In this document: one piece after another, positions 6,181 through 58,652 of the stretch
Layout of the letters: the number at the start of each line of letters is the position of its first letter
Numbering within the stretch: the stretch's first letter is position 1
Virus record (IMG/VR): IMGVR_UViG_3300045988_098233
Coordinates: 6,748-70,747 of that record
From: a virus
Reading direction: 5' to 3' (one strand)
DNA: 64,000 bases
The notes under the pieces: generated by a model
Databases searched by the model: none
The model's input: only the letters and a program-made list of their open reading frames with translations
What the model was told of the DNA's origin: nothing
Made by a program: the position numbers and the translations under genes

Positions 6181-7499
6181 AAGCCCTCCAATTCGATCTC
6201 CGCGCTGACGCTTTCACCCTCGCATCTGGCCGTTACCGTCAGCGGTTTCGGGCTGTTCCCCCAGCACCTCACTGTCAACCGGTTCCCATTGACACTCACG
6301 CTGTAAGAACCCTCTGCGGCTCCCTCATAGGTCCACTCCACTGCCGCGTCCTGGCGAACGCCGCCGATAAACAGCGCCGCCTCCAAGGTCTCTACATCGT
6401 AGGGGGCCATATACCGGGGAACCTCGTTCAAAAACCGTACCGCCGGTGTTTTTGCCGCCGATGCCTCCACCGTCACGGCGAAGGTCCCGCCGTAAGTCCG
6501 GTTTTGGTCCAGCACCGCCGTGATTTGGCAGGTGCCCTCGCCTACCGCTGTTACCACGCCTTTGCTGTCCACCGTGGCCACGTTGGTGTCGCTGGAACAC
6601 CATACATAGCCGATGGGGTGTTCCTCCGTGTTCTCCACCTCGGCCCCGTTCCGCCGGGAAGCAGCGGTGAATTGGAAGGCATCCCCCGCTGTCATGCGGG
6701 GCGCCCCGGTGACAAATACCGCCCAGGAGAAGTTCTTCCCCCCTGCCACCTTCGCTTCCAGATCGTCGATCTCGTGGTTCGGCTCCTGCATCCGGGCGTT
6801 GAAATACAGCAGGTGTGTGCTTTCATCGTCCCCGGTGAACTCCTGCGTCACGTCGGAGTAGCCCGTGATCTGGTAGGCCCGCCGCCCTAAGATCAGGCGG
6901 CTGTTCTGGTCTAACTGCTCCGTGTTGGCGTTTCGCTGGCAGATAATGTTGAAATATCCCTGCATGATGAGGGTCATTTCCTGAAAATCGTTGGCTGTGG
7001 CCTGCGCCAAGGACTTTTCCACAAGGATCGGTTCTTCTCGGATGTTCCCGTACCAGTCCAGAAACCGCCACACGGCGTTGCACCGCCGCATGATCCCGGT
7101 CCCTATTGCGCTGGACAGGTTGGATGGGTTCGTCACCAGCCAGTAGGAACCCATGGTCTCCACCTTGGCCCCCTCCGGGATGTAGTTCACTCCGGCGTCC
7201 GCCACCAGAAATGCCTTCTGATCATCGGTTTTCCGGGTGAGGCTGACGCCTTGCTTGGTGGTGTCGGAAAGCCGGATACGCTTTGTGCTCCACCGGTAGA
7301 AGTCACCGGAAACCAAGCCCTGCATCCGGGCCGTCACAAAGTCCGTGGCGTAAGGAGCCATTTCCTCCACAAACCGGGCCGTGGCATCCGCAAAATACTG
7401 CCGCTTCCGATCCCGATATTGAGGCGGTGCGTTGGTTGCCCTGCCGCTCCCGCCGCTCAGTAGGCCGATGTTTTTCATGCCGTGCTTGGCGTTCGCCAT
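6177..7499 (-). CDS. structural protein with Big_2-type Ig-like repeats
   Basis: 440 aa. Big_2 signature WCSSDTNVATVDSKGVVTAVGEGTCQITAVL plus a second Ig-like repeat at the C-terminus. Confidence 0.55.
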   Translation of the reverse strand: MANAKHGMKNIGLLSGGSGRATNAPPQYRDRKRQYFADATARFVEEMAPYATDFVTARMQGLVSGDFYRWSTKRIRLSDTTKQGVSLTRKTDDQKAFLVADAGVNYIPEGAKVETMGSYWLVTNPSNLSSAIGTGIMRRCNAVWRFLDWYGNIREEPILVEKSLAQATANDFQEMTLIMQGYFNIICQRNANTEQLDQNSRLILGRRAYQITGYSDVTQEFTGDDESTHLLYFNARMQEPNHEIDDLEAKVAGGKNFSWAVFVTGAPRMTAGDAFQFTAASRRNGAEVENTEEHPIGYVWCSSDTNVATVDSKGVVTAVGEGTCQITAVLDQNRTYGGTFAVTVEASAAKTPAVRFLNEVPRYMAPYDVETLEAALFIGGVRQDAAVEWTYEGAAEGSYSVSVNGNRLTVRCWGNSPKPLTVTARCEGESVSAEIELEGL

Positions 7500-8240: not shown

Positions 8241-8801
8241 TTACGTTTTTGGAATGTATACCAGCACGGTCCCTCCCGGTTCCGCGTCATTCATGGCAAT
8301 GCCGTCTGCGTTGGCGGAGTCCGTCCCCGCCCCGGTCGCCAGAATTACGTTCCTTGGGTAAAGGTCCGCAGCCGGATAAAGTGATGCGTCCGGCAGCAGT
8401 GCCGTGGCCAGTGCCCCCGCTGAGTCGCTCCTGACCCCGGTTCCGGGATACAGCGCCGTGCTTGGGTACAGGCTTGCGCTGGGATACAGCCCTGCTTCCA
8501 GCTTCACATAGTCTCCGATGTTGATTTTCTTGCCGCCGGGGTTTACGGGAAATTCCCGAAAGGTCCCGGCCGCGCATAGGTAGTGGGCTTCCCCGCCGCC
8601 TTGCTTCGGCAGCGTTACCCGCTGTACGGCGTTGTATTTCACGCCCGCTATTTTCACGTTTGCCTGCCATTGGGGCAAACTTCCCGGATCTCCGCCGATG
8701 TAAATGAAATCTCCGTTCCCCGTCCCGGTGGACAGGGGGATGGATAAACGCCCCACGCCGCTGTATGTCTTGTGGTTTACAATGACGGTTGGACTTGGCA
8801 T
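8241..8801 (-). CDS. hypothetical protein with LYP(S/G/A) repeats
   Basis: 186 aa. AAAGGAG RBS upstream of ATG 8801. Repeated LYPSASLYPSTALYPG / LYPAADLYP motifs. Confidence 0.5.
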   Translation of the reverse strand: MPSPTVIVNHKTYSGVGRLSIPLSTGTGNGDFIYIGGDPGSLPQWQANVKIAGVKYNAVQRVTLPKQGGGEAHYLCAAGTFREFPVNPGGKKINIGDYVKLEAGLYPSASLYPSTALYPGTGVRSDSAGALATALLPDASLYPAADLYPRNVILATGAGTDSANADGIAMNDAEPGGTVLVYIPKT

Positions 8802-9122
8802 GAAGCGTTCTCCTTTCTGTTATTCCCCCTTCCCCCCCCAAGGTGGGGTTTCCAAAGGGGAAAGCACCAAAGCGCCGCCAGTGGCGGATAAAGCGAGGTG
8901 CTTTCGAGGAAATGGCACGATTGGCAGCCCATCAGGGCCGGGAATCGTATAGCCATGACGGTGTTAGGGCCGCAGCCCTCGCCCTTTGTGCCGTTGGGGG
9001 TCCAGGGCGAAGTCGGAACGCCCTGGTGCTTTTCTTCCGGGGTGTGGGGCGGGTTCTTTTCCAGAAAAGAATGCGCCCCACGTCCATGACATGGGAATGT
9101 CCCATTGCGGGAGCAAGCCCAT
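8802..9122 (-). ncRNA. hairpin-rich structured intergenic element, copy 1 (unknown class)
   Basis: 321 nt with no ORF. Homologous to 11803-12041. Shared blocks are ACGGCACAAAGGG(G)CG and CCCCUUUGGRAACCCC, and the hairpins keep their loops while the stems differ. Confidence 0.5.
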
Positions 9123-9623
9123 TTAGGAAATACTCAGCACCCCATCCAGCAGCGAGATCGTCGGCATGGTGGTGGTGCCTGTGACCTTTTGGCCGTTCAC
9201 ATAGGCGGTTTTGCCGGAAAGAATGTCCCCGGCAGTGGCGTCCGCGTCATCGGTGTCCACCACGGAGGTTTTACCGGCTACGCCCAGAATGGTCGCCCCG
9301 GACTTGATGTTGCCGGGAATCACCTTTCCTTGCTCCGCCTCGGAAATCTGAACGGTGCCTCCGGTGGTGTAGCCTGCAGGAATCGTGACCGTTCCGTCCA
9401 CCGTGGAAATGGTTCCGTCGGTCTTTCCGTTGTTTGGCATGGAACCGCCGATCAGGCTTCCGTTGACGTATGCGTTTTTCCCGGTCAGAATATCGCCGGC
9501 CGCCGCAGTGGCGTCACTGGTCTCCACATAGCGGGCGCTGCCGCCTCCCTCCTGCAGGGGGATCTTTACTTCTTCCACGCCCTCATACGGAACTTTGTTG
9601 ATGATTACATTTTTCTTTGCCAT
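9123..9623 (-). CDS. fibre-like protein with internal repeat
   Basis: 166 aa. Duplicated motif ATAAAGDILTGKNAYVNG / ATAGDILSGKTAYVNG. RBS AAAAGGAG. Confidence 0.5.
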   Translation of the reverse strand: MAKKNVIINKVPYEGVEEVKIPLQEGGGSARYVETSDATAAAGDILTGKNAYVNGSLIGGSMPNNGKTDGTISTVDGTVTIPAGYTTGGTVQISEAEQGKVIPGNIKSGATILGVAGKTSVVDTDDADATAGDILSGKTAYVNGQKVTGTTTMPTISLLDGVLSIS

Positions 9624-9686
9624 GTTTCCGGTCTCCTTTTAAAAATTTTCGACCCCATCAACCGTTTTATATGGGGGTTGGATTTG

Positions 9687-10046
9687 TTAAGTCACGGTGA
9701 TCTCGTCTCCGCTGTAGGTGATTTTCCCGTAGTCGCTGGGAATGGCTTCCACGATCACGCGGGACAGCGCCGCGTAGTTGGCGTCCGGCGTCACAATCTG
9801 CTGGACTCCGGACGGCACCACGGTTTTTTCCTGATAGACCCGCCCTTCTCCATCGGTGACGTTCAGAACCACGTCCTGAATGTCCATCACCATAGGCTTG
9901 AAGCAGGTCTCCGGCGTCAGTGTAGAGTGCTTGTTGGGTGTCAGCTCAGCTCCTTTGACTGCGGTCGGTTCTTCCGTGTCCGGCGGTATCCCGGCAGTGG
10001 GAACGGCGCAGCCTTCCGGGGTCAGGGTGGAGTGTTTGTTCGCCAT
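9687..10046 (-). CDS. hypothetical protein (NKHSTLTPE duplicated)
   Basis: 119-aa ORF. Confidence 0.45.
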   Translation of the reverse strand: MANKHSTLTPEGCAVPTAGIPPDTEEPTAVKGAELTPNKHSTLTPETCFKPMVMDIQDVVLNVTDGEGRVYQEKTVVPSGVQQIVTPDANYAALSRVIVEAIPSDYGKITYSGDEITVT

Positions 10047-10351
10047 CAGATCACCCCTTCCACGATGGCCTTCCGCACGTTCACATCCGGTCCCCGGAAG
10101 CCCACCACCTCCTGATGGGGCAGTTTCATTCGTCCGCCGGTCTCAACGGGCCGGTCAGGCAGCTTCAGGCTCTGTTCCTGTGAAAGGGAGAAATACCACT
10201 GCCCCTCCGCGTAGGTCAGCCCGCCGTTGGGGTAGAACTTTGCAATGCCGCCGATCTTCAGCACCAGGAGTTCCACCATCTGCGGCTCGATCACAACATC
10301 GTTCTGCCGCACCACGATGGGGATCAGATAGGAGTCTCCCTGCATCGCCAT
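10046..10351 (-). CDS. hypothetical protein
   Basis: 101-aa ORF with a 1-nt overlap with the downstream gene. Confidence 0.45.
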   Translation of the reverse strand: MAMQGDSYLIPIVVRQNDVVIEPQMVELLVLKIGGIAKFYPNGGLTYAEGQWYFSLSQEQSLKLPDRPVETGGRMKLPHQEVVGFRGPDVNVRKAIVEGVI

Positions 10352-10381
10352 TGCTCTGTTCCCCCCTTCGGTTTAAAACTC

Positions 10382-11404
10382 TCAGCCGGTCCAGTCGGCT
10401 TTGCTCTCTCTCACGTCGATATGCGTGAATCCTTCCTTCGTGTAAATGCCCACGCCGCCCCAGTCCGGCATCAGCTGTCTGGCGTAGGCCGCCACCTGCG
10501 CCGGGGTCTTGCCCCGCACCACAATGTCAGCCGCCGTGCCGTAGCAGTGCTGGCTGTCCGTCACGCCGCCCACTTTGGCGTTGTACTGGGGCGTCCGATA
10601 CCCACTGTTGATGGTCACAGCCGCGCAAAAGTGACTGCGGAGGCTCTGCAAAACCATCACCAGCCGGGGCGCTACCAGCACGGCATCGGAGCCGTCCTTG
10701 CAGGCAAATTCTCTCACTGCAAAGTTTGTGGACAGTTTCTTGCCGCCGTCCTTCGCCTTGGAATAGGCGTTGATCTCTACCATGGGTTTTTCTCCTTCCG
10801 GTTCAAATGCGTCCCCGCTTTTCAGTTTCCAGACGAGGAAAAACGGGATCACCCGCCCGTCCCCGGTAAAACCATTGCCGTCCTTGTCCATGAAGCAGGT
10901 GCTTCCTCCGCCGTCCATCATAATGGCGTTGTCCCAGCCGGAGGATACCAGCAAATCACGGAGCTGTTCCGGCGACCGCCGGTCCTTGCTCACATAGTAG
11001 GCAAACCGCCCGTTCTTGGTGCCGATGGCCGTTCGGGGCGCACGGTAGCTCATATCCGCTCCGCAGGTGACGGGGCTGATCTTCTTCCCGCCGATGATAA
11101 GGTGAACGCACTCCATGTAGTTTGCGTCCCCGTTGGGCACGGTTTTTACGCCGAAATCCTCCGGGGTGTTCCAGCTGATGGCCCATGCCCGATAATCCGG
11201 GGCCTTGTAAACCTTTCCGTCTGCCTTCAGGTGGCAGGCGGGCTGCTGGTTCCTTAGAAAAATGGAGCCGTTGCAGATGGCATCTCCGCCTGTCTCTGCC
11301 AACATCTTCTTGAGGTTGGCCGTGGTGGAGCGGAGACGTTTTCTGTTGAAATAAATCCGCAACCATTGGAGGTCCTGAAGCGGAATTGTACCCGCTCTGG
11401 TCAT
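10382..11404 (-). CDS. two-domain endolysin: phosphodiester-glycosidase-like (DUF2233) N-domain plus peptidase M15A C-domain
   Basis: 340 aa. N-domain motifs NGSIF...MMDGGGST. C-domain FAVREFACKDG...INSGYRTPQYNAKVGGVTDSQHCYGTAADI...GFTHIDVR (Zn ligands H-D-H). Confidence 0.8.
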   Translation of the reverse strand: MTRAGTIPLQDLQWLRIYFNRKRLRSTTANLKKMLAETGGDAICNGSIFLRNQQPACHLKADGKVYKAPDYRAWAISWNTPEDFGVKTVPNGDANYMECVHLIIGGKKISPVTCGADMSYRAPRTAIGTKNGRFAYYVSKDRRSPEQLRDLLVSSGWDNAIMMDGGGSTCFMDKDGNGFTGDGRVIPFFLVWKLKSGDAFEPEGEKPMVEINAYSKAKDGGKKLSTNFAVREFACKDGSDAVLVAPRLVMVLQSLRSHFCAAVTINSGYRTPQYNAKVGGVTDSQHCYGTAADIVVRGKTPAQVAAYARQLMPDWGGVGIYTKEGFTHIDVRESKADWTG

Positions 11405-11784
11405 TTTCTCAGGTTCTTGCGGCTGTAGCAGCAGCCCCGGCTGTCATAGCTCAGCTCCCAGTGACCCACGGTGATGGTGGTGTCAGCGCGGCTCTCGTCC
11501 CGATCCATCACAGGGATGGCAATGCCGTAGACCCCGCCGCCCAGTGCCTTGTTGGAGTAGCGGATAGGCTTGCCGTCGCTGGCGATCTTGTAGATGCCGT
11601 CCTTCCCGTCATCCTCACCGGGGATGAAGCCCTCTTTCATCTCCTGCTCCGTCCAACCGGCCACGCCGCCGTCGGGATTCAGGTGGAAGTTGGCACCGGC
11701 CTCCTTCAGGGCCTCGTTGATCTCATCAATGGTCTTACCGGTGGCCTTGCCCTCGTTGATGATCTCTGCATATTTCTTGTCCAT
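11401..11784 (-). CDS. hypothetical protein upstream of endolysin
   Basis: Start trimmed to MDKKYAEI (ATG 11784, AAAGGAG RBS). 4-nt overlap with the endolysin. Confidence 0.5.
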   Translation of the reverse strand: MDKKYAEIINEGKATGKTIDEINEALKEAGANFHLNPDGGVAGWTEQEMKEGFIPGEDDGKDGIYKIASDGKPIRYSNKALGGGVYGIAIPVMDRDESRADTTITVGHWELSYDSRGCCYSRKNLRK

Positions 11785-11802
11785 GATTTGTTCTCCTTTC
11801 AA

Positions 11803-12041
11803 ATCAAAAAATGGTTGTTGATTCTATCTATGTCCCCCTCGTCCTTGCCCCCCCCTCCAAAGGAGGGGTTCCCAAAGGGGAGGAATCGCAATTCCGCCCC
11901 TTTGTGCCGTTTCAAGGGGGTGCGGGGGGAAATCGGAATCCCCCCGCGTTTCTCTTTAGGGGGCCGGGGGGACATTCTCTTTTCAAAAGAGAATATCCCC
12001 TTGGCTTCCGCTGGGGACCCCAGCCCTTTGCGGAAGCAATT
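11803..12041 (-). ncRNA. hairpin-rich structured intergenic element, copy 2 (unknown class)
   Basis: 239 nt with no ORF. A series of GC-clamped hairpins, e.g. GGGGGGA-UUCCGAUU-UCCCCCC and GGGGAuAUUCUCUUUUgAAAAGAGAAUgUCCCC. Homologous to 8802-9122. Confidence 0.5.
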
Positions 12042-12314
12042 TTAATTACTCATCTGCTTTGCAATCTGATTGACCCCGGTGCTGGCCAGGCCGCTCACAA
12101 TGCCCACTGCCACGGCGGTGAGATAGTCCGTTGCGGGGAAGTCTGCCATGATCAGCATCCCCACCACGCCCAGAACGCCGCCGGACACGCCCACAACAAT
12201 GGGGATCCATTTGTTCTCAATGGCGGTGGCCTTCACAGCCATGCCGATCAGGTAGCAGATCACCGTGATTACTGCCACGCTTGCAATGCCAAATCCAGAA
12301 ATATCCATGTTCAA
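12042..12314 (-). CDS. holin (Hol44 / holin superfamily V type)
   Basis: 90 aa, three hydrophobic segments. MDISGFGIASVAVITVICYLIGMAVKAT..NKWIPIVVGVSGGVLGVV..AVGIVSGLASTGVNQ pattern. Confidence 0.75.
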   Translation of the reverse strand: MNMDISGFGIASVAVITVICYLIGMAVKATAIENKWIPIVVGVSGGVLGVVGMLIMADFPATDYLTAVAVGIVSGLASTGVNQIAKQMSN

Positions 12315-22179: not shown

Positions 22180-23540
22180 ACAGCTAAAGCCGGGGCGATT
22201 CTCGGTTCACCGACTACCGCCTCCCGTTTCTGGGGGGGCTTACGCAGTCTCCTCGAGCGTATAGGTTCGGGCGTGTCCCGCCCTACCTTGTGTAGTGGCT
22301 ACGCCAACAGGCGCAAGCCCTCATTCAAAATGTTCTTTGCGGCGTTCACGTCCCTATCATGGACAGCACCGCACTTGGGGCAAGTCCATTCCCGGACGGA
22401 CAGGTCTTTTGTTCCGGGCCACTGTGCGCCGCAAGCGGAGCAAAGCTGACTGGACGGAAAGAAACGATCGACCGTGACCACCTGTTTTCCGTACAACGCC
22501 GCCTTGTACTCCAACTGCCGCCGGAACTCGCTCCAACTTGCATCAGAGATTGCCTTTGCCAGTTTGTGGTTCTTGACCATGTTCTTGGGAACTAAGTCCT
22601 CAATCGCAATCAAGTCATAAGTTCGCACAAGGATGGTGGACAGTTTATGGAGCATATCCTGCCGCTGATTGGCAACGTGTTCGTGGAGCCGTGCTACTTG
22701 TATCCTCGCCTTTTCCCGGCGGTTACTGCCCTTTGATTTTCGGGACAACTGCCGCTGGAGTTTGGCAAGTTTCTTCTGGCTCCGGGTCAGGTATTTATGG
22801 TTCGGATACTCTACGCCATCGGAGGTGATAGCAAATGCTTTCAGGCCCATGTCGATACCGGCCACCGCGCCGGTAGTGGGTAGCAGATTCATCTCCACAT
22901 CGGCGCAGCATAAAGAAACAAAGTATTTCCCACTGGAAGTGCGGGACACGGTAGCAGTCAAGATACGACCCTCCACCTTCTTGGAGATACGGCATTTTAC
23001 CCGCCCCAACTTGGGGAGTCGGACAGCCTTCTCCAAGACCTTTATGTTGGCATTAACACATCTGCTTGTATAGCTTTGTTTATAGCTTTTCTTACTCTTG
23101 AAACGCGGATAGCCAAACCGGTTGTCTCCCTCTTTGATGCTACGGAAGAAGTTCTGGAAGGCTTTATCTAAATTCTGCACCGCAGATTGCAGGGCGGTGG
23201 AATCCACCTCTTTCAGCCATAGCAGAGTTTTTTTCAGCATTGGAAGGTCGTTTCTCTGCTGGTAGCGAGAAGGTGAGTGCCCTGTATCCTTGTATTGGCT
23301 CTGCCACTGGTCGAGAAAGTAGTTATACACAAACCGACAGCAGCCGAAGGTTTTATTTATTTGACTCTTTTGCTGTGCGTTCGGATAAATGCGAAATTTA
23401 TAACTGTATCCATCCACCGTCCTCTCCCCCCTTCTGTGAGCGAGATACTATAAAGATGGTTAGTTTATTTGCTTGTGTATGCGTCTTATAGTCCCGTAGC
23501 AAAAGAACGTGTGTACGACGCTTTCCTAAAAAAAACAGAG
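22180..23540 (-). mobile_element. IS200/IS605-family element carrying only tnpB (IS1341-like); ends approximate
   Basis: tnpB plus a structured 3' flank (22182-22298, omega/reRNA position). Visibly lower GC than the flanks. Inserted between the early and late operons. Confidence 0.6.
22299..23417 (-). CDS. tnpB: TnpB RNA-guided nuclease (IS605 OrfB family)
   Basis: 372 aa. RuvC contexts GIDMG, AIEDL and [10 protein letters not shown]. Zinc finger CSACG...CPKCG. No tnpA nearby. Confidence 0.9.
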
Positions 23541-40699: not shown

Positions 40700-40950
40700 T
40701 CGCGTTTTACGAACGATTTTACGAACGCCGCAAAACGCCCATTCATTTTCAACGGTTATAGCCGTTTATTAGTGGGTTCGACTCCCGCCACTCGGACCAA
40801 CCCCACAATCCTTGTGATTGTGGGGTTTTCCTTATATTCCAACGGGTTCAGCCGTTTTTGGATGGTAAAAATATTTTCCATTACGTCAATAAAAATACCA
40901 AATGCAAGGAGTTTTATCTTCGATTTTACGAACGGTTTTACGAACGAAAA
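40700..40950 (+). other. attP-like attachment region: arm repeats on both sides of a tRNA 3' end mimic plus terminator
   Basis: TTTTACGAACG twice at 40705-40727 and twice at 40924-40946. CAACGGTTATAGCCGTTT / CAACGGGTTCAGCCGTTT flank GTGGGTTCGACTCCCGCCACTCGGACCA (40772-40799: T-arm, acceptor 3' strand, CCA). Hairpin plus U-run at 40801-40830. Confidence 0.6.
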
Positions 40951-44661: not shown

Positions 44662-45641
44662 AAATCATTCCTCCTATCTTTAGCATAGCAACCCCCTCCA
44701 ATAGGGTTTTTGCACACCCGCTTCACCTACCGCCTACCAGCACGTCACCTACCGACCGCCTGCGCCCCGCCCGCACCGCGCAACCTAAGCACGTATTCCC
44801 CACATAAGCGAAGCGTTTTTATAAAAATTTTTTTTGACCCCTTTTTGACTTTTCCGTTTTTTGCCCCCGGTTTTCTAAACTACCCCCCCCTTAAAGGGGT
44901 AGGAAAGGCGACGGGGATGAGAACGTGGGTGGAGGGGGAAGAGTTGTGGAGAGATTCTGCGCCGATCCGGTGTCCAGGTCTGTAAACCACCCCCCACCCA
45001 GCCGGGGCCGTGGTCAGCTGGTCAGCTGGTCAGCCGGTGCCATTGGAGCGGAGGCGGGGCCGCTGGGCGGGTCTCGGAGAGGGTCAAAACCTGTTGCAAA
45101 TGCCTGAACTGTTGCCATAATAAGCAATTAGGGCAACAGTTACCGCCTTTTTGGGTGGTAAATGCAACAACAGCCCATGCCGCCATTGTGCAACCTGACG
45201 AAAGGCGGCGGGAGCCGGGGCCGCTGGGCGGGTCTCTGGTCTTGGTGCCGGTGGTGGTGGCCGTCCTCAGATGGTCGGCGGTGGCCGTGGAGGTCGGGCC
45301 GATGCAATCAGCCGGAACAGACCCCCGGCGGTGACTCCTCCACCCCTTCCCCTTTTTCCGTTGTCCATTGCTTCCGGGCCTGCGGGAGTGCTCCGCGCCT
45401 TTCTTCATTTGGGTAAAGCGTCCGGGGGTTCTTGGGGGTACGTTTTAGGGTACTCTAATCAAGCGCGCCCGCAAGAAACGCGCGCGCACGCATAGGGGCT
45501 AAAAATAGGCCACTGGCGTGGCTCAGGATGTAAGCGGCTGCGCGGCGTGGGTCTGTGGTGCGGTGCTGGGCTGTATCGCTCAGAGGGCACGAGAAAAGCC
45601 CGCCGGGGCGGTTCCCGGTGGGCTGGTGGTGGCGGGTGGTA
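44662..45641. repeat. ORF-free repeat-rich region (ori/pac/partition-like candidate)
   Basis: AT-rich tract 44810-44870. GGTCAGC(T/C)GG three times (45011-45037). 20-nt direct repeat GGGGCCGCTGGGCGGGTCTC at about 45055 and 45215. Five TGTTGC/GCAACA boxes, including a perfect 10-bp inverted repeat AACTGTTGCC...GGCAACAGTT (45107-45141). Confidence 0.5.
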
Positions 45642-55576: not shown

Positions 55577-55639
55577 GCAGACGTCCAAGCCGCGGCCGAT
55601 CACGCGGGGAGTTGGGGACATCTCCAACCGTCTGCACCA
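55577..55639 (+). ncRNA. acceptor-stem module 2
   Basis: Same GCAGACG...CGTCTGC-A-CCA ends. CCGCG-GCCGATCA-CGCGG arm and a 7-bp GTTGGGG/CTCCAAC tetraloop hairpin. Confidence 0.35.
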
Positions 55640-55817
55640 TGGCAGGGAACGTTTTCGGGTGATGCGTCTCTGCCACTGCTCCATAAATATATAAGCTGCG
55701 GCCCGCAAAAGCAGCTCGCCTCCGGCAACTGGTCCTTGCCCTTGACGCCCCGGTGCAATTCCGGTTGGGCATAGGACCCCTCGCACCTCTCAACGATGTG
55801 TCCAAAGCGGGACATTT

Positions 55818-55889
55818 GCAGACGTAGCTCAGTAGGCAGAGCACCGCGCCAGGAGGTATGCGCTGGTTCAAGTCCAGCCGTCTGCACCA
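55818..55889 (+). ncRNA. acceptor-stem module 3: tRNA-like with normal D and T arms but aberrant anticodon arm
   Basis: GCAGACG TA GCTCAGTAGGCAGAGC A ... GCTGG-TTCAAGT-CCAGC CGTCTGC A CCA. Only 18 nt (CCGCGCCAGGAGGTATGC) sit where a 17-nt anticodon arm plus variable loop should be. Confidence 0.45.
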
Positions 55890-56029
55890 CATCCAGCGCC
55901 GTGAGAAGTACACTCACAAACGGGTTGCCCGGAGATGGGCGCAGCAGGGCAACAGAAACGTGTACCTATGGGGGCCAACCGCAGGCAGCCGACACGCAGC
56001 GGTGACAGTCTGGAAAGACAGACAAACAT

Positions 56030-56104
56030 AGGGGTGTAGCCAAGCGGTAAGGCAAGGGACTTTGACTCCCTCACGCGCTGGTCCGAATCCAGCCATCCCT
56101 GCCA
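56030..56104 (+). tRNA. tRNA-Gln (UUG)
   Basis: Acceptor AGGGGTG/CATCCCT, D arm GCCAAGCGGTAAGGC (Gln-typical), anticodon stem AGGGA/TCCCT with loop CTTTGAC, T arm GCTGG-TCCGAAT-CCAGC, G73, CCA. Confidence 0.9.
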
Positions 56105-58468: not shown

Positions 58469-58652
58469 AAATCCCCATGCTGCTCTATCTTGCCGGACGG
58501 ACAGCATGAGGAAACGGCAAATATCCGCAGGGACTCGCCAAATTCATTATGGCGCGGGCCTTGTGAAAAGTCAAGTATTCTGTCAAAAAGCCCCTTGTCA
58601 GCGGCTGGGACAATAAAGATAGAATACAGGAAAGATCAAGGAGGAATCCCCA

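Follow-up and report, generated by a model that had tools for sequence, protein, structure and literature searches.

Which kind of sequence fills the two long, hairpin-rich spacers near the lysis genes of an uncultured phage? The stretch analysed, called the window in the following, comprises 64,000 nt of the IMG/VR record IMGVR_UViG_3300045988_098233 (positions 6,748 to 70,747). A sequence-only reading had described two homologous elements on its minus strand, copy 1 at 8802-9122 and copy 2 at 11803-12041. These coordinates proved correct, and the copies are collinear with the module order A-B-C-D-E in both. With a probability of roughly 0.6, we consider them copies of a new interspersed mosaic repeat family, comparable to repetitive extragenic palindromes (REP), bacterial interspersed mosaic elements (BIME) or BOX elements, of gut Oscillospiraceae (Dysosmobacter, Oscillibacter, Neopoerus) and shared with their phages. 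Members of the family are scattered over host chromosomes and occur in several phage lineages, and the family turns over by module shuffling, deletion, tandem repetition and exchange between the two sites of the phage.

The element family in phages and host chromosomes

The homology of the two copies was evident from their alignment (two segments of 97 and 30 nt with 71 % and 87 % identity; E values of 7e-6 and 8e-5 for the whole window). The 21-nt block CCCCTTTGGRAACCCCWCCTT occurred exactly twice in the window and never in 100 shuffles, and the predicted folding of both spacers was far below that of shuffled controls (z = -5.1 and -4.2). A covariance model of the modules C and D, built from the sequences of relatives, detected copy 2 with 93.5 bits (E 8.5e-20) and copy 1 with 54.8 bits (E 6.4e-11), and gave no further match in the 64-kb window with an E value below 0.3. 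A weaker fragment suggested at 44882-44900 turned out to be a short CCCCTTTAAGGGG palindrome; supported neither by the model nor by BLAST with host copies, it was rejected as a third copy at 44.9 kb. The elements had also been described as free of open reading frames (ORFs). Mechanical ORFs of 52-58 aa are present inside them, but these are not conserved: internal ORFs differ between alleles, some variants contain no ATG ORF at all, and the lengths of 44 variants are distributed 20/15/9 modulo 3. For lack of a conserved reading frame, the elements were judged non-coding and a protein-coding element was rejected.

In every copy, GC-rich palindromic modules (A to E, an optional X, and in hosts a tail of about 350 nt) follow one another in a fixed order, joined by conserved A/C-rich linkers. 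The four modules listed in the sequence-only reading are present in both elements, and so is the insert of about 100 nt in copy 1 with its stem GAAAGCACC/GGUGCUUUC, here named module X. Blocks 3 and 4 of that reading are, however, not separate modules: CAAAGG pairs with CCUUUG, thus they are the two halves of one hairpin, module D. Module A has a second allele in relatives and hosts, a UCCC-loop hairpin with a covarying stem (GACAU/AUGUC versus GUAGU/ACUAC). Module B is a 16-bp GC-clamped hairpin around UUCUCUUUU/AAAAGAGAA, followed by a C/A-rich linker ending in AGAAAC. Module C, a G-run/C-run hairpin with the loop UUCCGAYU, is separated from D by the linker ACCCCC...GGCAC. The lower stem of D, CAAAGG(GG)/(CC)CCUUUG, is invariant and has 6-8 bp; above it are located a conserved C.U mismatch or bulged C, a variable upper stem of 4-6 bp and a four-base loop, usually UGCG closed by C-G. 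Behind the linker GAAAC follows module E, a hairpin whose C-rich arm comes first, and then a purine-rich tail that leads into the ribosome-binding site. The tail of copy 2 (11785-11852) is specific to the phage site and lies outside the dispersed repeat. Within it, the block CATAGATAGAATCAACAACC (11813-11832, minus strand) stands shortly before the ribosome-binding site of the 127-aa ORF. It is conserved in nearly all post-holin elements of relatives but occurs only once in the window and not in host copies, and may be a phage-specific signal separate from the repeat.

Host copies were obtained by screening one genome per species, 185,579 species in total, for the pattern GCACAAAGG-N17-23-CCTTTGRAAACC of the D hairpin. 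Nine true loci were identified: three in Dysosmobacter segnis BX15, two in Neopoerus faecalis and four in metagenome-assembled genomes of Oscillibacter; Dysosmobacter and Neopoerus are classified in the Oscillospiraceae. Eight additional matches were unrelated, and the three of these that were inspected appeared to be coding, non-repeat sequence. A metagenome scan yielded at least 119 loci, and all contigs with a source stated in the record name originated from the human gut. The flanks of all instances formed 21 upstream and 18 downstream clusters, and in Oscillospiraceae chromosomes and several phage lineages the family occupies about 20 or more unrelated genomic sites. Host copies neighbour housekeeping genes, namely mutS, arginine deiminase (arcA), pnp, smc, tdk, dut, a comF-like gene, aspS and miaB, and are also found between divergent genes. 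The chromosomal loci keep the order A-B-C-D-E and are usually extended by a conserved hairpin block of about 350 nt that the window does not have, so that host copies reach about 700 nt; their module number differs. The best host match to copy 2 is located in the miaB-mutS spacer (90 % over 162 nt), and copy 1 matched a host locus with 75 % over 305 nt, X included. In other host mosaics, module X stands at other positions with compensated stems (GAAAGCACC/GGUGCUUUC versus GAAAGCGGGC/GCCCGCUUUC); overall, three different positions of X were observed.

The additional block of about 350 nt lies downstream of E in the host loci L228, L231, L238, L271, L288 and L318 and includes GAGCGGCAGCGGAAAG..., GGTATAGCGCAGCCGGTAGG..., GAGTTGAC...GTCAACTC and TTTTCTTTTCC...GGAAAAGAAAA. 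It had no Rfam match, and searches for a tRNA or tmRNA origin were negative. The whole host composite of about 700 nt may represent a larger unit. In the intergenic region between an XRE-like gene and rnhA, locus L231 of D. segnis and the metagenomic locus L288 have flanks of 94-95 % identity, with an element of about 500 nt in opposite orientations. At its far end, L231 also has a partial A-B copy of 59 nt in inverted orientation. A simple inversion was rejected as explanation, since the two loci differ in the allele of the neighbouring XRE-like gene as well.

In the phage, the order on the minus strand is holin, 239-nt spacer, 127-aa ORF, endolysin, ORFs of 101, 119 and 166 aa, 321-nt spacer and 186-aa ORF. 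The elements had been said to bracket the lysis cassette, which holds for the endolysin with its NAGPA and M15 domains, located between the copies together with the 127-aa ORF and three small ORFs, but not for the holin, which lies upstream of copy 2 and outside the bracket. A search of IMG/VR with the 21-nt block revealed 18 loci and a holin-anchored search 80 loci. About 40 of the latter have a holin 97-99 % identical to that of the window, and every one of them has the post-holin element; the remaining loci, mostly with holins of about 63 % identity, have little or no spacer to the next ORF and no element. Upstream of the 186-aa gene, the element was present in all 13 contigs with that gene. 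Both sites were filled in every close relative of the phage.

Between near-identical flanking genes, 44 distinct elements were recovered, and the 40 at the two sites of the window type measured 209-342 nt. The relatives have two alleles of A, three of B, three of C and four main upper-stem types of D, and the D/E-like unit occurs in 1-4 tandem copies. Deletions end in short C or G runs. The allele combinations C1-D1, C1-D2, C1-D3, C2-D2, C2-D3 and C3-D3 were all found. The alleles B3-C3-D3 of copy 1 are also present at the post-holin site of other phages, and the alleles B1-C1-D1 of copy 2 at the other site; therefore the two sites exchange sequence. No variant lacking the cassette between the two copies, or with the cassette swapped as a whole, was observed among the relatives examined. 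Another phage lineage has an unrelated 63-aa membrane protein (holin-like), followed by the element and an ORF homologous to the C-terminal half of the 127-aa ORF; a NAGPA lysin comes next, with an M15 peptidase as a separate protein. In a blastn comparison with GenBank phages, only the holin and endolysin obtained matches, the elements never. A search of viral contigs with the 14-mer AACGGCACAAAGGG gave mostly chance matches. At the end of one contig (IMGVR_UViG_3300045988_102448, L145, 3270-3820), a post-holin element contains X and the host-type tail of about 350 nt, and the start of the same contig (L012) opens inside module B with a different continuation. Either this long phage variant is real, or the contig was assembled chimerically at the repeat that phage and host share.

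Conserved structure of the hairpins

Conserved loops with compensated stems, as noted from the two copies, were confirmed by formal covariation among 70 distinct sequences. The model of C and D gave 116 matches in 100 sources, from which the 70 sequences were taken. An alignment with MAFFT alone misaligns hairpin D; the covariation was determined on a model-based alignment. In this alignment, which is fitted to the model and thus leans to the given structure, and whose sequences are related to one another, 92 % of the cells pair and 10 of 21 pairs have changes on both sides. Helix 1, module C, accounted for double changes in 6 of its 9 pairs. Cells with double changes numbered 111 compared to 31 ± 4 in shuffles, a value reached by none of 500 shuffles, and the covariation score was 0.202 versus at most 0.054 with the partners slid. 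At the same positions, stems of module C switch from AU to GC and from GC to CG. The 37 variants of D share one architecture of lower stem, mismatch, upper stem and tetraloop, and chimeric D hairpins with arms from different variants lose about 4.7 kcal/mol. The structure of the element, be it as RNA or as single-stranded DNA, is under selection: the stems covary strongly, and loops, linkers and the C.U mismatch are fixed. Since the stems covary while loops and linkers are invariant, some partner, an enzyme, a protein or an RNA, must read these hairpins.

Known families did not account for the structure. Rfam 15 at the gathering score identified only tRNAs in the window; in the element region, the best matches were miRNA hairpins or whalefall-1 with E values of 0.2-0.6. 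Nine host loci had no match, and the host composite gave only sub-threshold matches of the miRNA type. The sequence-only reading had likewise assigned no known RNA class and had proposed the Rfam search. In the literature, no description of this repeat family was found. On the minus strand of 8802-9122 and 11803-12041, no sigma-70 promoter (-35/-10 hexamers with a spacing of 16-18 nt) was detected. Neither element has a convincing intrinsic terminator (GC hairpin and U tract); the single match, in copy 1, is followed by a weak tail, and fewer terminator-like sites were counted overall than expected from shuffles.

The repeat reading and its alternatives

REP and BIME elements of Enterobacteria and Pseudomonas are also extragenic multi-copy mosaics of imperfect palindromes and conserved linkers with a variable unit number, often located just past stop codons or between operon genes in both orientations. 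They are known to affect mRNA decay and the translation of upstream genes. The present family shares with them the dispersed extragenic copies at many unrelated chromosomal sites and the palindromic mosaic with linkers and a variable number of units. It differs in its unrelated sequence, in the host, a Firmicute, and in having copies in phage genomes. The mosaics are much longer, about 210-340 nt in the phage and about 700 nt in host chromosomes, and they contain at least five distinct hairpins in a fixed order. No invariant GTAG-like tetranucleotide was apparent 5' of the palindromes, and a crude Y1-transposase motif scan of about 2.8 Mb of loci around the copies detected no RAYT. The BOX elements (boxA-boxB(n)-boxC) of Streptococcus pneumoniae, a Firmicute, are likewise modular and intergenic repeats with a strong predicted fold and a variable central unit, corresponding to D/E with 1-4 copies, and their copies also differ by whole modules. 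Unlike BOX, the present family is shared with phages, its hairpins are far more GC-rich, and complementary terminal modules were absent in the two host composite loci checked, L238 and L228, which contained no terminal inverted repeats of 24 nt or more.

Of the functions offered in the sequence-only reading, a mobile structured repeat fits best with the roughly 20 or more unrelated sites, whereas a phage leader or riboregulator dedicated to the lysis genes does not: the same repeat stands between housekeeping genes of the likely hosts, so the elements are not a phage-specific riboregulator. The further suggestion that the repeat delivered the cassette was not supported, as no target-site duplications, terminal inverted repeats or recombinase were found, the holin lies outside, and other phages have one copy before the same endolysin module. 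The copies would spread and diversify by homologous or illegitimate recombination and by replication slippage among copies, and phage and host may exchange them during infection. The hairpin fold would be maintained because it is required for propagation or, alternatively, because it has a use in the transcript. Both phage copies are in sense orientation within a co-directional late operon and start 0-4 nt past the upstream stop codon. By analogy, this position and the presumed sense read-through make an action like that of REP and BIME most likely: read through in late polycistronic RNA, the copies would be structured intercistronic spacers that block 3'-5' decay or are processed. Expression would thereby be uncoupled at both sites, between the holin and the endolysin block and between the 166-aa and the 186-aa genes. 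In E. coli, REP hairpins near the stop codon are reported to reduce the output of the upstream gene, and hairpin A might damp its upstream gene similarly. As portable homology, the copies may provide recombination-prone junctions where gene modules are swapped.

Several observations weigh against a REP-like repeat. Only three matches were present in D. segnis with the strict 21-nt pattern. Host copies have both orientations and are co-oriented with the upstream gene at 14 of 21 sites. No transposase, target-site duplication or terminal inverted repeat was found, so the mode of spread is putative. A specific binding partner, not named in the repeat model, could be the reason for the fixed linkers and loops. 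Finally, the antisense strand is predicted to fold about 11 kcal/mol better, and stem departures of the G.U and A.C type are roughly symmetric, hence lacking strand asymmetry; therefore a role of the sense-strand RNA is putative. The G.U pairs in local hairpins number 112 for the sense and 537 for the antisense strand, and the commonest 1x1 mismatch on the sense strand is A.C. Because the composition favours the antisense strand, these counts and the fold energies are uninformative for a strand call. A sense RNA would be in line with the C(UNCG)G loops, with unpaired linkers of A and C only on the sense strand, with the location of X at an internal loop and with the constant sense orientation in the phage operon.

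The same observations are the basis of the first alternative, which we consider unlikely: a cis-acting structured RNA selected in the phage, with incidental host copies. It would be a leader or a processing site, or a translational switch controlling the ratio of holin to endolysin. In every relative, the element is sense-oriented in a co-directional operon. The first hairpin begins 0-4 nt behind the upstream stop codon, and in the other lineage it recurs between a non-homologous holin and the same module of small ORF and NAGPA endolysin. The insertion of X at an internal loop resembles RNA expansion segments. The location of the mosaic beside unrelated housekeeping genes, in both orientations and between divergent genes, is difficult to reconcile with this function, as is the absence of a terminator/antiterminator pair, of an Rfam match and of strand asymmetry among wobble pairs. 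A 1-4 fold variation in module content despite identical flanking genes would be odd for a tuned switch. Intergenic stem-loops of phages, the RNase III sites of T7 and the PeSL of T4-like phages, are comparable in that homologous hairpins are repeated between the genes of one phage, at module-exchange junctions, and are read through in polycistronic RNA. These stem-loops, however, are confined to phages and include either a promoter or a defined RNase III site, while the present family is also chromosomal and has neither a promoter nor a perfect duplex of 20 bp or more.

It is rather improbable that the elements are the footprint of an undescribed structure-dependent system and not passive repeats. 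Such a system would be either a non-autonomous mobile element, attC-like with no known integrase, that is transferred as a folded single strand between chromosomes of Oscillospiraceae and their phages and bounds swappable phage cassettes, or a multi-copy RNA with C-rich loops used by host and phage. Simple repeat decay does not account for the fixed loops, linkers and C.U mismatch, for the nesting of X, or for the opposite orientations at one host locus.

A structure-specific site of DNA recombination or transposition, of the type of integron attC, REP/RAYT or the ends of IS200/IS605, would be cut and joined as a folded strand by an enzyme of host or phage and mobilise the cassette; we regard such a site as quite improbable. 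It would explain why structure is kept more than sequence, the extrahelical-like C.U mismatch conserved in D, the two direct copies around a 2.7-kb cassette, the three positions of X, and the dispersal in both orientations including the opposite ones at a single host locus. An attC site also combines conserved structure with variable sequence, has a conserved unpaired base in the stem and flanks a gene cassette. In contrast to attC, with its R and L cores and a single bulged hairpin, the present element is a multi-hairpin mosaic. The cores GTTRRRY/RYYYAAC were absent from both strands of both copies, and no integron integrase was present among the annotated neighbours. Besides the negative Y1 scan, neither an integrase nor a RAYT was detected nearby; the sole transposase gene of the window is a solo tnpB at 10 kb distance. 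The imprecise indel boundaries in C/G runs are expected of slippage rather than of site-specific cutting, and the cassette was in no variant missing or swapped as a whole.

Very improbable is a trans-acting small RNA or sponge. Through its many C-rich loops and linkers (UCCC, CCCCC), such an RNA would base-pair with Shine-Dalgarno regions, which are G-rich, or sequester an RNA-binding protein. In module A, the UCCC loop is kept while its stems covary, C-rich linkers are unpaired, and the multi-copy arrangement resembles that of small RNAs with C-rich motifs in Firmicutes; in the phage copies, however, neither promoter nor terminator delimits a discrete transcript, and host copies extend to about 700 nt with differing module number. 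A mimic of CRISPR repeats (RNA anti-CRISPR) is hardly credible: the D unit, a GC stem with tetraloop and 11-nt tail ending in GGAAAC, in tandem 1-4 times, resembles type I-C repeats in architecture only, only 6 of 11 tail positions match the I-C handle, the same units lie beside housekeeping genes in host chromosomes, the stems vary freely where a mimic should match one host repeat, and a scan for regularly spaced CCTTTGGAAAC gave this repeat family and unrelated, mostly apparently coding tandem repeats, but no CRISPR array.

Locus features and significance

The coordinates of the two mosaics and the adjacent genes are listed in Table 1.

Table 1 Modules of the two element copies and neighbouring genes in the window
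Feature	Position	Strand	Description
Holin gene	12042-12314	minus	PF16079, E 2.7e-24; directly upstream of copy 2
Element copy 2	11803-12041	minus	complete A-B-C-D-E and purine-rich tail; from holin stop codon to start of 127-aa ORF
Copy 2 module A	12004-12037	minus	hairpin GCUUCCGC...GCGGAAGC, inner CUGGGG-UCC-CCAG; begins 4 nt past holin stop codon
Copy 2 module B	11968-12000	minus	GC-clamped hairpin GGGGAUAUUCUCUUUU-G-AAAAGAGAAUGUCCCC
Copy 2 module C	11922-11947	minus	hairpin GCGGGGGGA-UUCCGAUU-UCCCCCCGC; conserved linker AGAAAC before, ACCCCC after
Copy 2 module D	11873-11904	minus	hairpin CAAAGG-GG-C-GGAAU-UGCG-AUUCC-U-CC-CCUUUG; UNCG-type loop
Copy 2 linker GGAAC and module E	11853-11872	minus	hairpin CCCUCC-UUU-GGAGGG
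Copy 2 tail	11785-11852	minus	purine-rich; conserved CAUAGAUAGAAUCAACAACC block; ribosome-binding site of 127-aa ORF
127-aa ORF	11401-11784	minus	between copy 2 and endolysin
Endolysin, NAGPA and peptidase M15	10382-11404	minus	between the two copies
166-aa ORF	9123-9623	minus	upstream of copy 1
Element copy 1	8802-9122	minus	A-B-C-D(+X)-E and tail; from 166-aa ORF stop codon to 186-aa ORF start
Copy 1 module B, allele 3	9044-9081	minus	GUGGGGCG-CAUUCUUUUCUGGAAAAGAACC-CGCCCCAC; allele also at post-holin site of other phages
Copy 1 module C, allele 3	9002-9026	minus	CCAGGGCG-UUCCGACUU-CGCCCUGG
Copy 1 module D, split by X	8853-8988	minus	5' half 8966-8988, 3' half 8853-8859
Module X	8860-8965	minus	106-nt two-hairpin insert, exactly at internal mismatch of D in copy 1
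Copy 1 linker GAAAC and module E	8836-8852	minus	CCCACCUUGGGG
186-aa ORF	8241-8801	minus	downstream of copy 1

Other structured or repeated sequences were observed in the window. The spacer between the 119-aa and 166-aa ORFs (9624-9686, minus strand) has a CCCCAT/ATGGGG hairpin followed by a T run, resembling a weak terminator; it is unrelated to the mosaic repeat family. The solo tnpB (22299-23417, minus strand; PF12323, PF01385 and PF07282, phrog_506) is IS605 OrfB/Cas12f-like, has no adjacent tnpA and lies in a stretch of lower GC content (22-28 kb, GC 0.52-0.54); its flanks have no similarity to the repeat family. In a tRNA cluster on the plus strand (55168-56104), Rfam identified three tRNAs (55168, 55818, 56030) and ARAGORN two (Gly-CCC, Gln-TTG), and direct repeats of 35-38 nt are located among them (55387-55421/55607-55641 and 55403-55440/55873-55910). 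A 45-nt motif, CAAAAACCCCCTTGG...ACAATRAAAT, has three plus-strand copies (52472-52516, 54817-54861 and 58584-58628), which may represent recurrent promoters or operators of the gene block on the plus strand. At the switch from minus- to plus-strand genes, the intergenic region 40705-40946 (plus strand) contains clustered iteron-like repeats of 11-12 nt, TTTTACGAACG(R), that may mark an origin.

The repeat family, unannotated and absent from Rfam, resides in abundant human-gut Oscillospiraceae and their uncultured phages. It links an orphan phage group to Dysosmobacter and Oscillibacter as likely hosts, and the shared sequence accounts for assemblies of these phages that break or turn chimeric at these positions. 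By the lysis genes, it marks hypervariable junctions where modules are exchanged. Knowing the partner that reads the hairpins would reveal how non-coding DNA is traded between phages and hosts, and whether host repeats serve phages in shaping late-gene expression.

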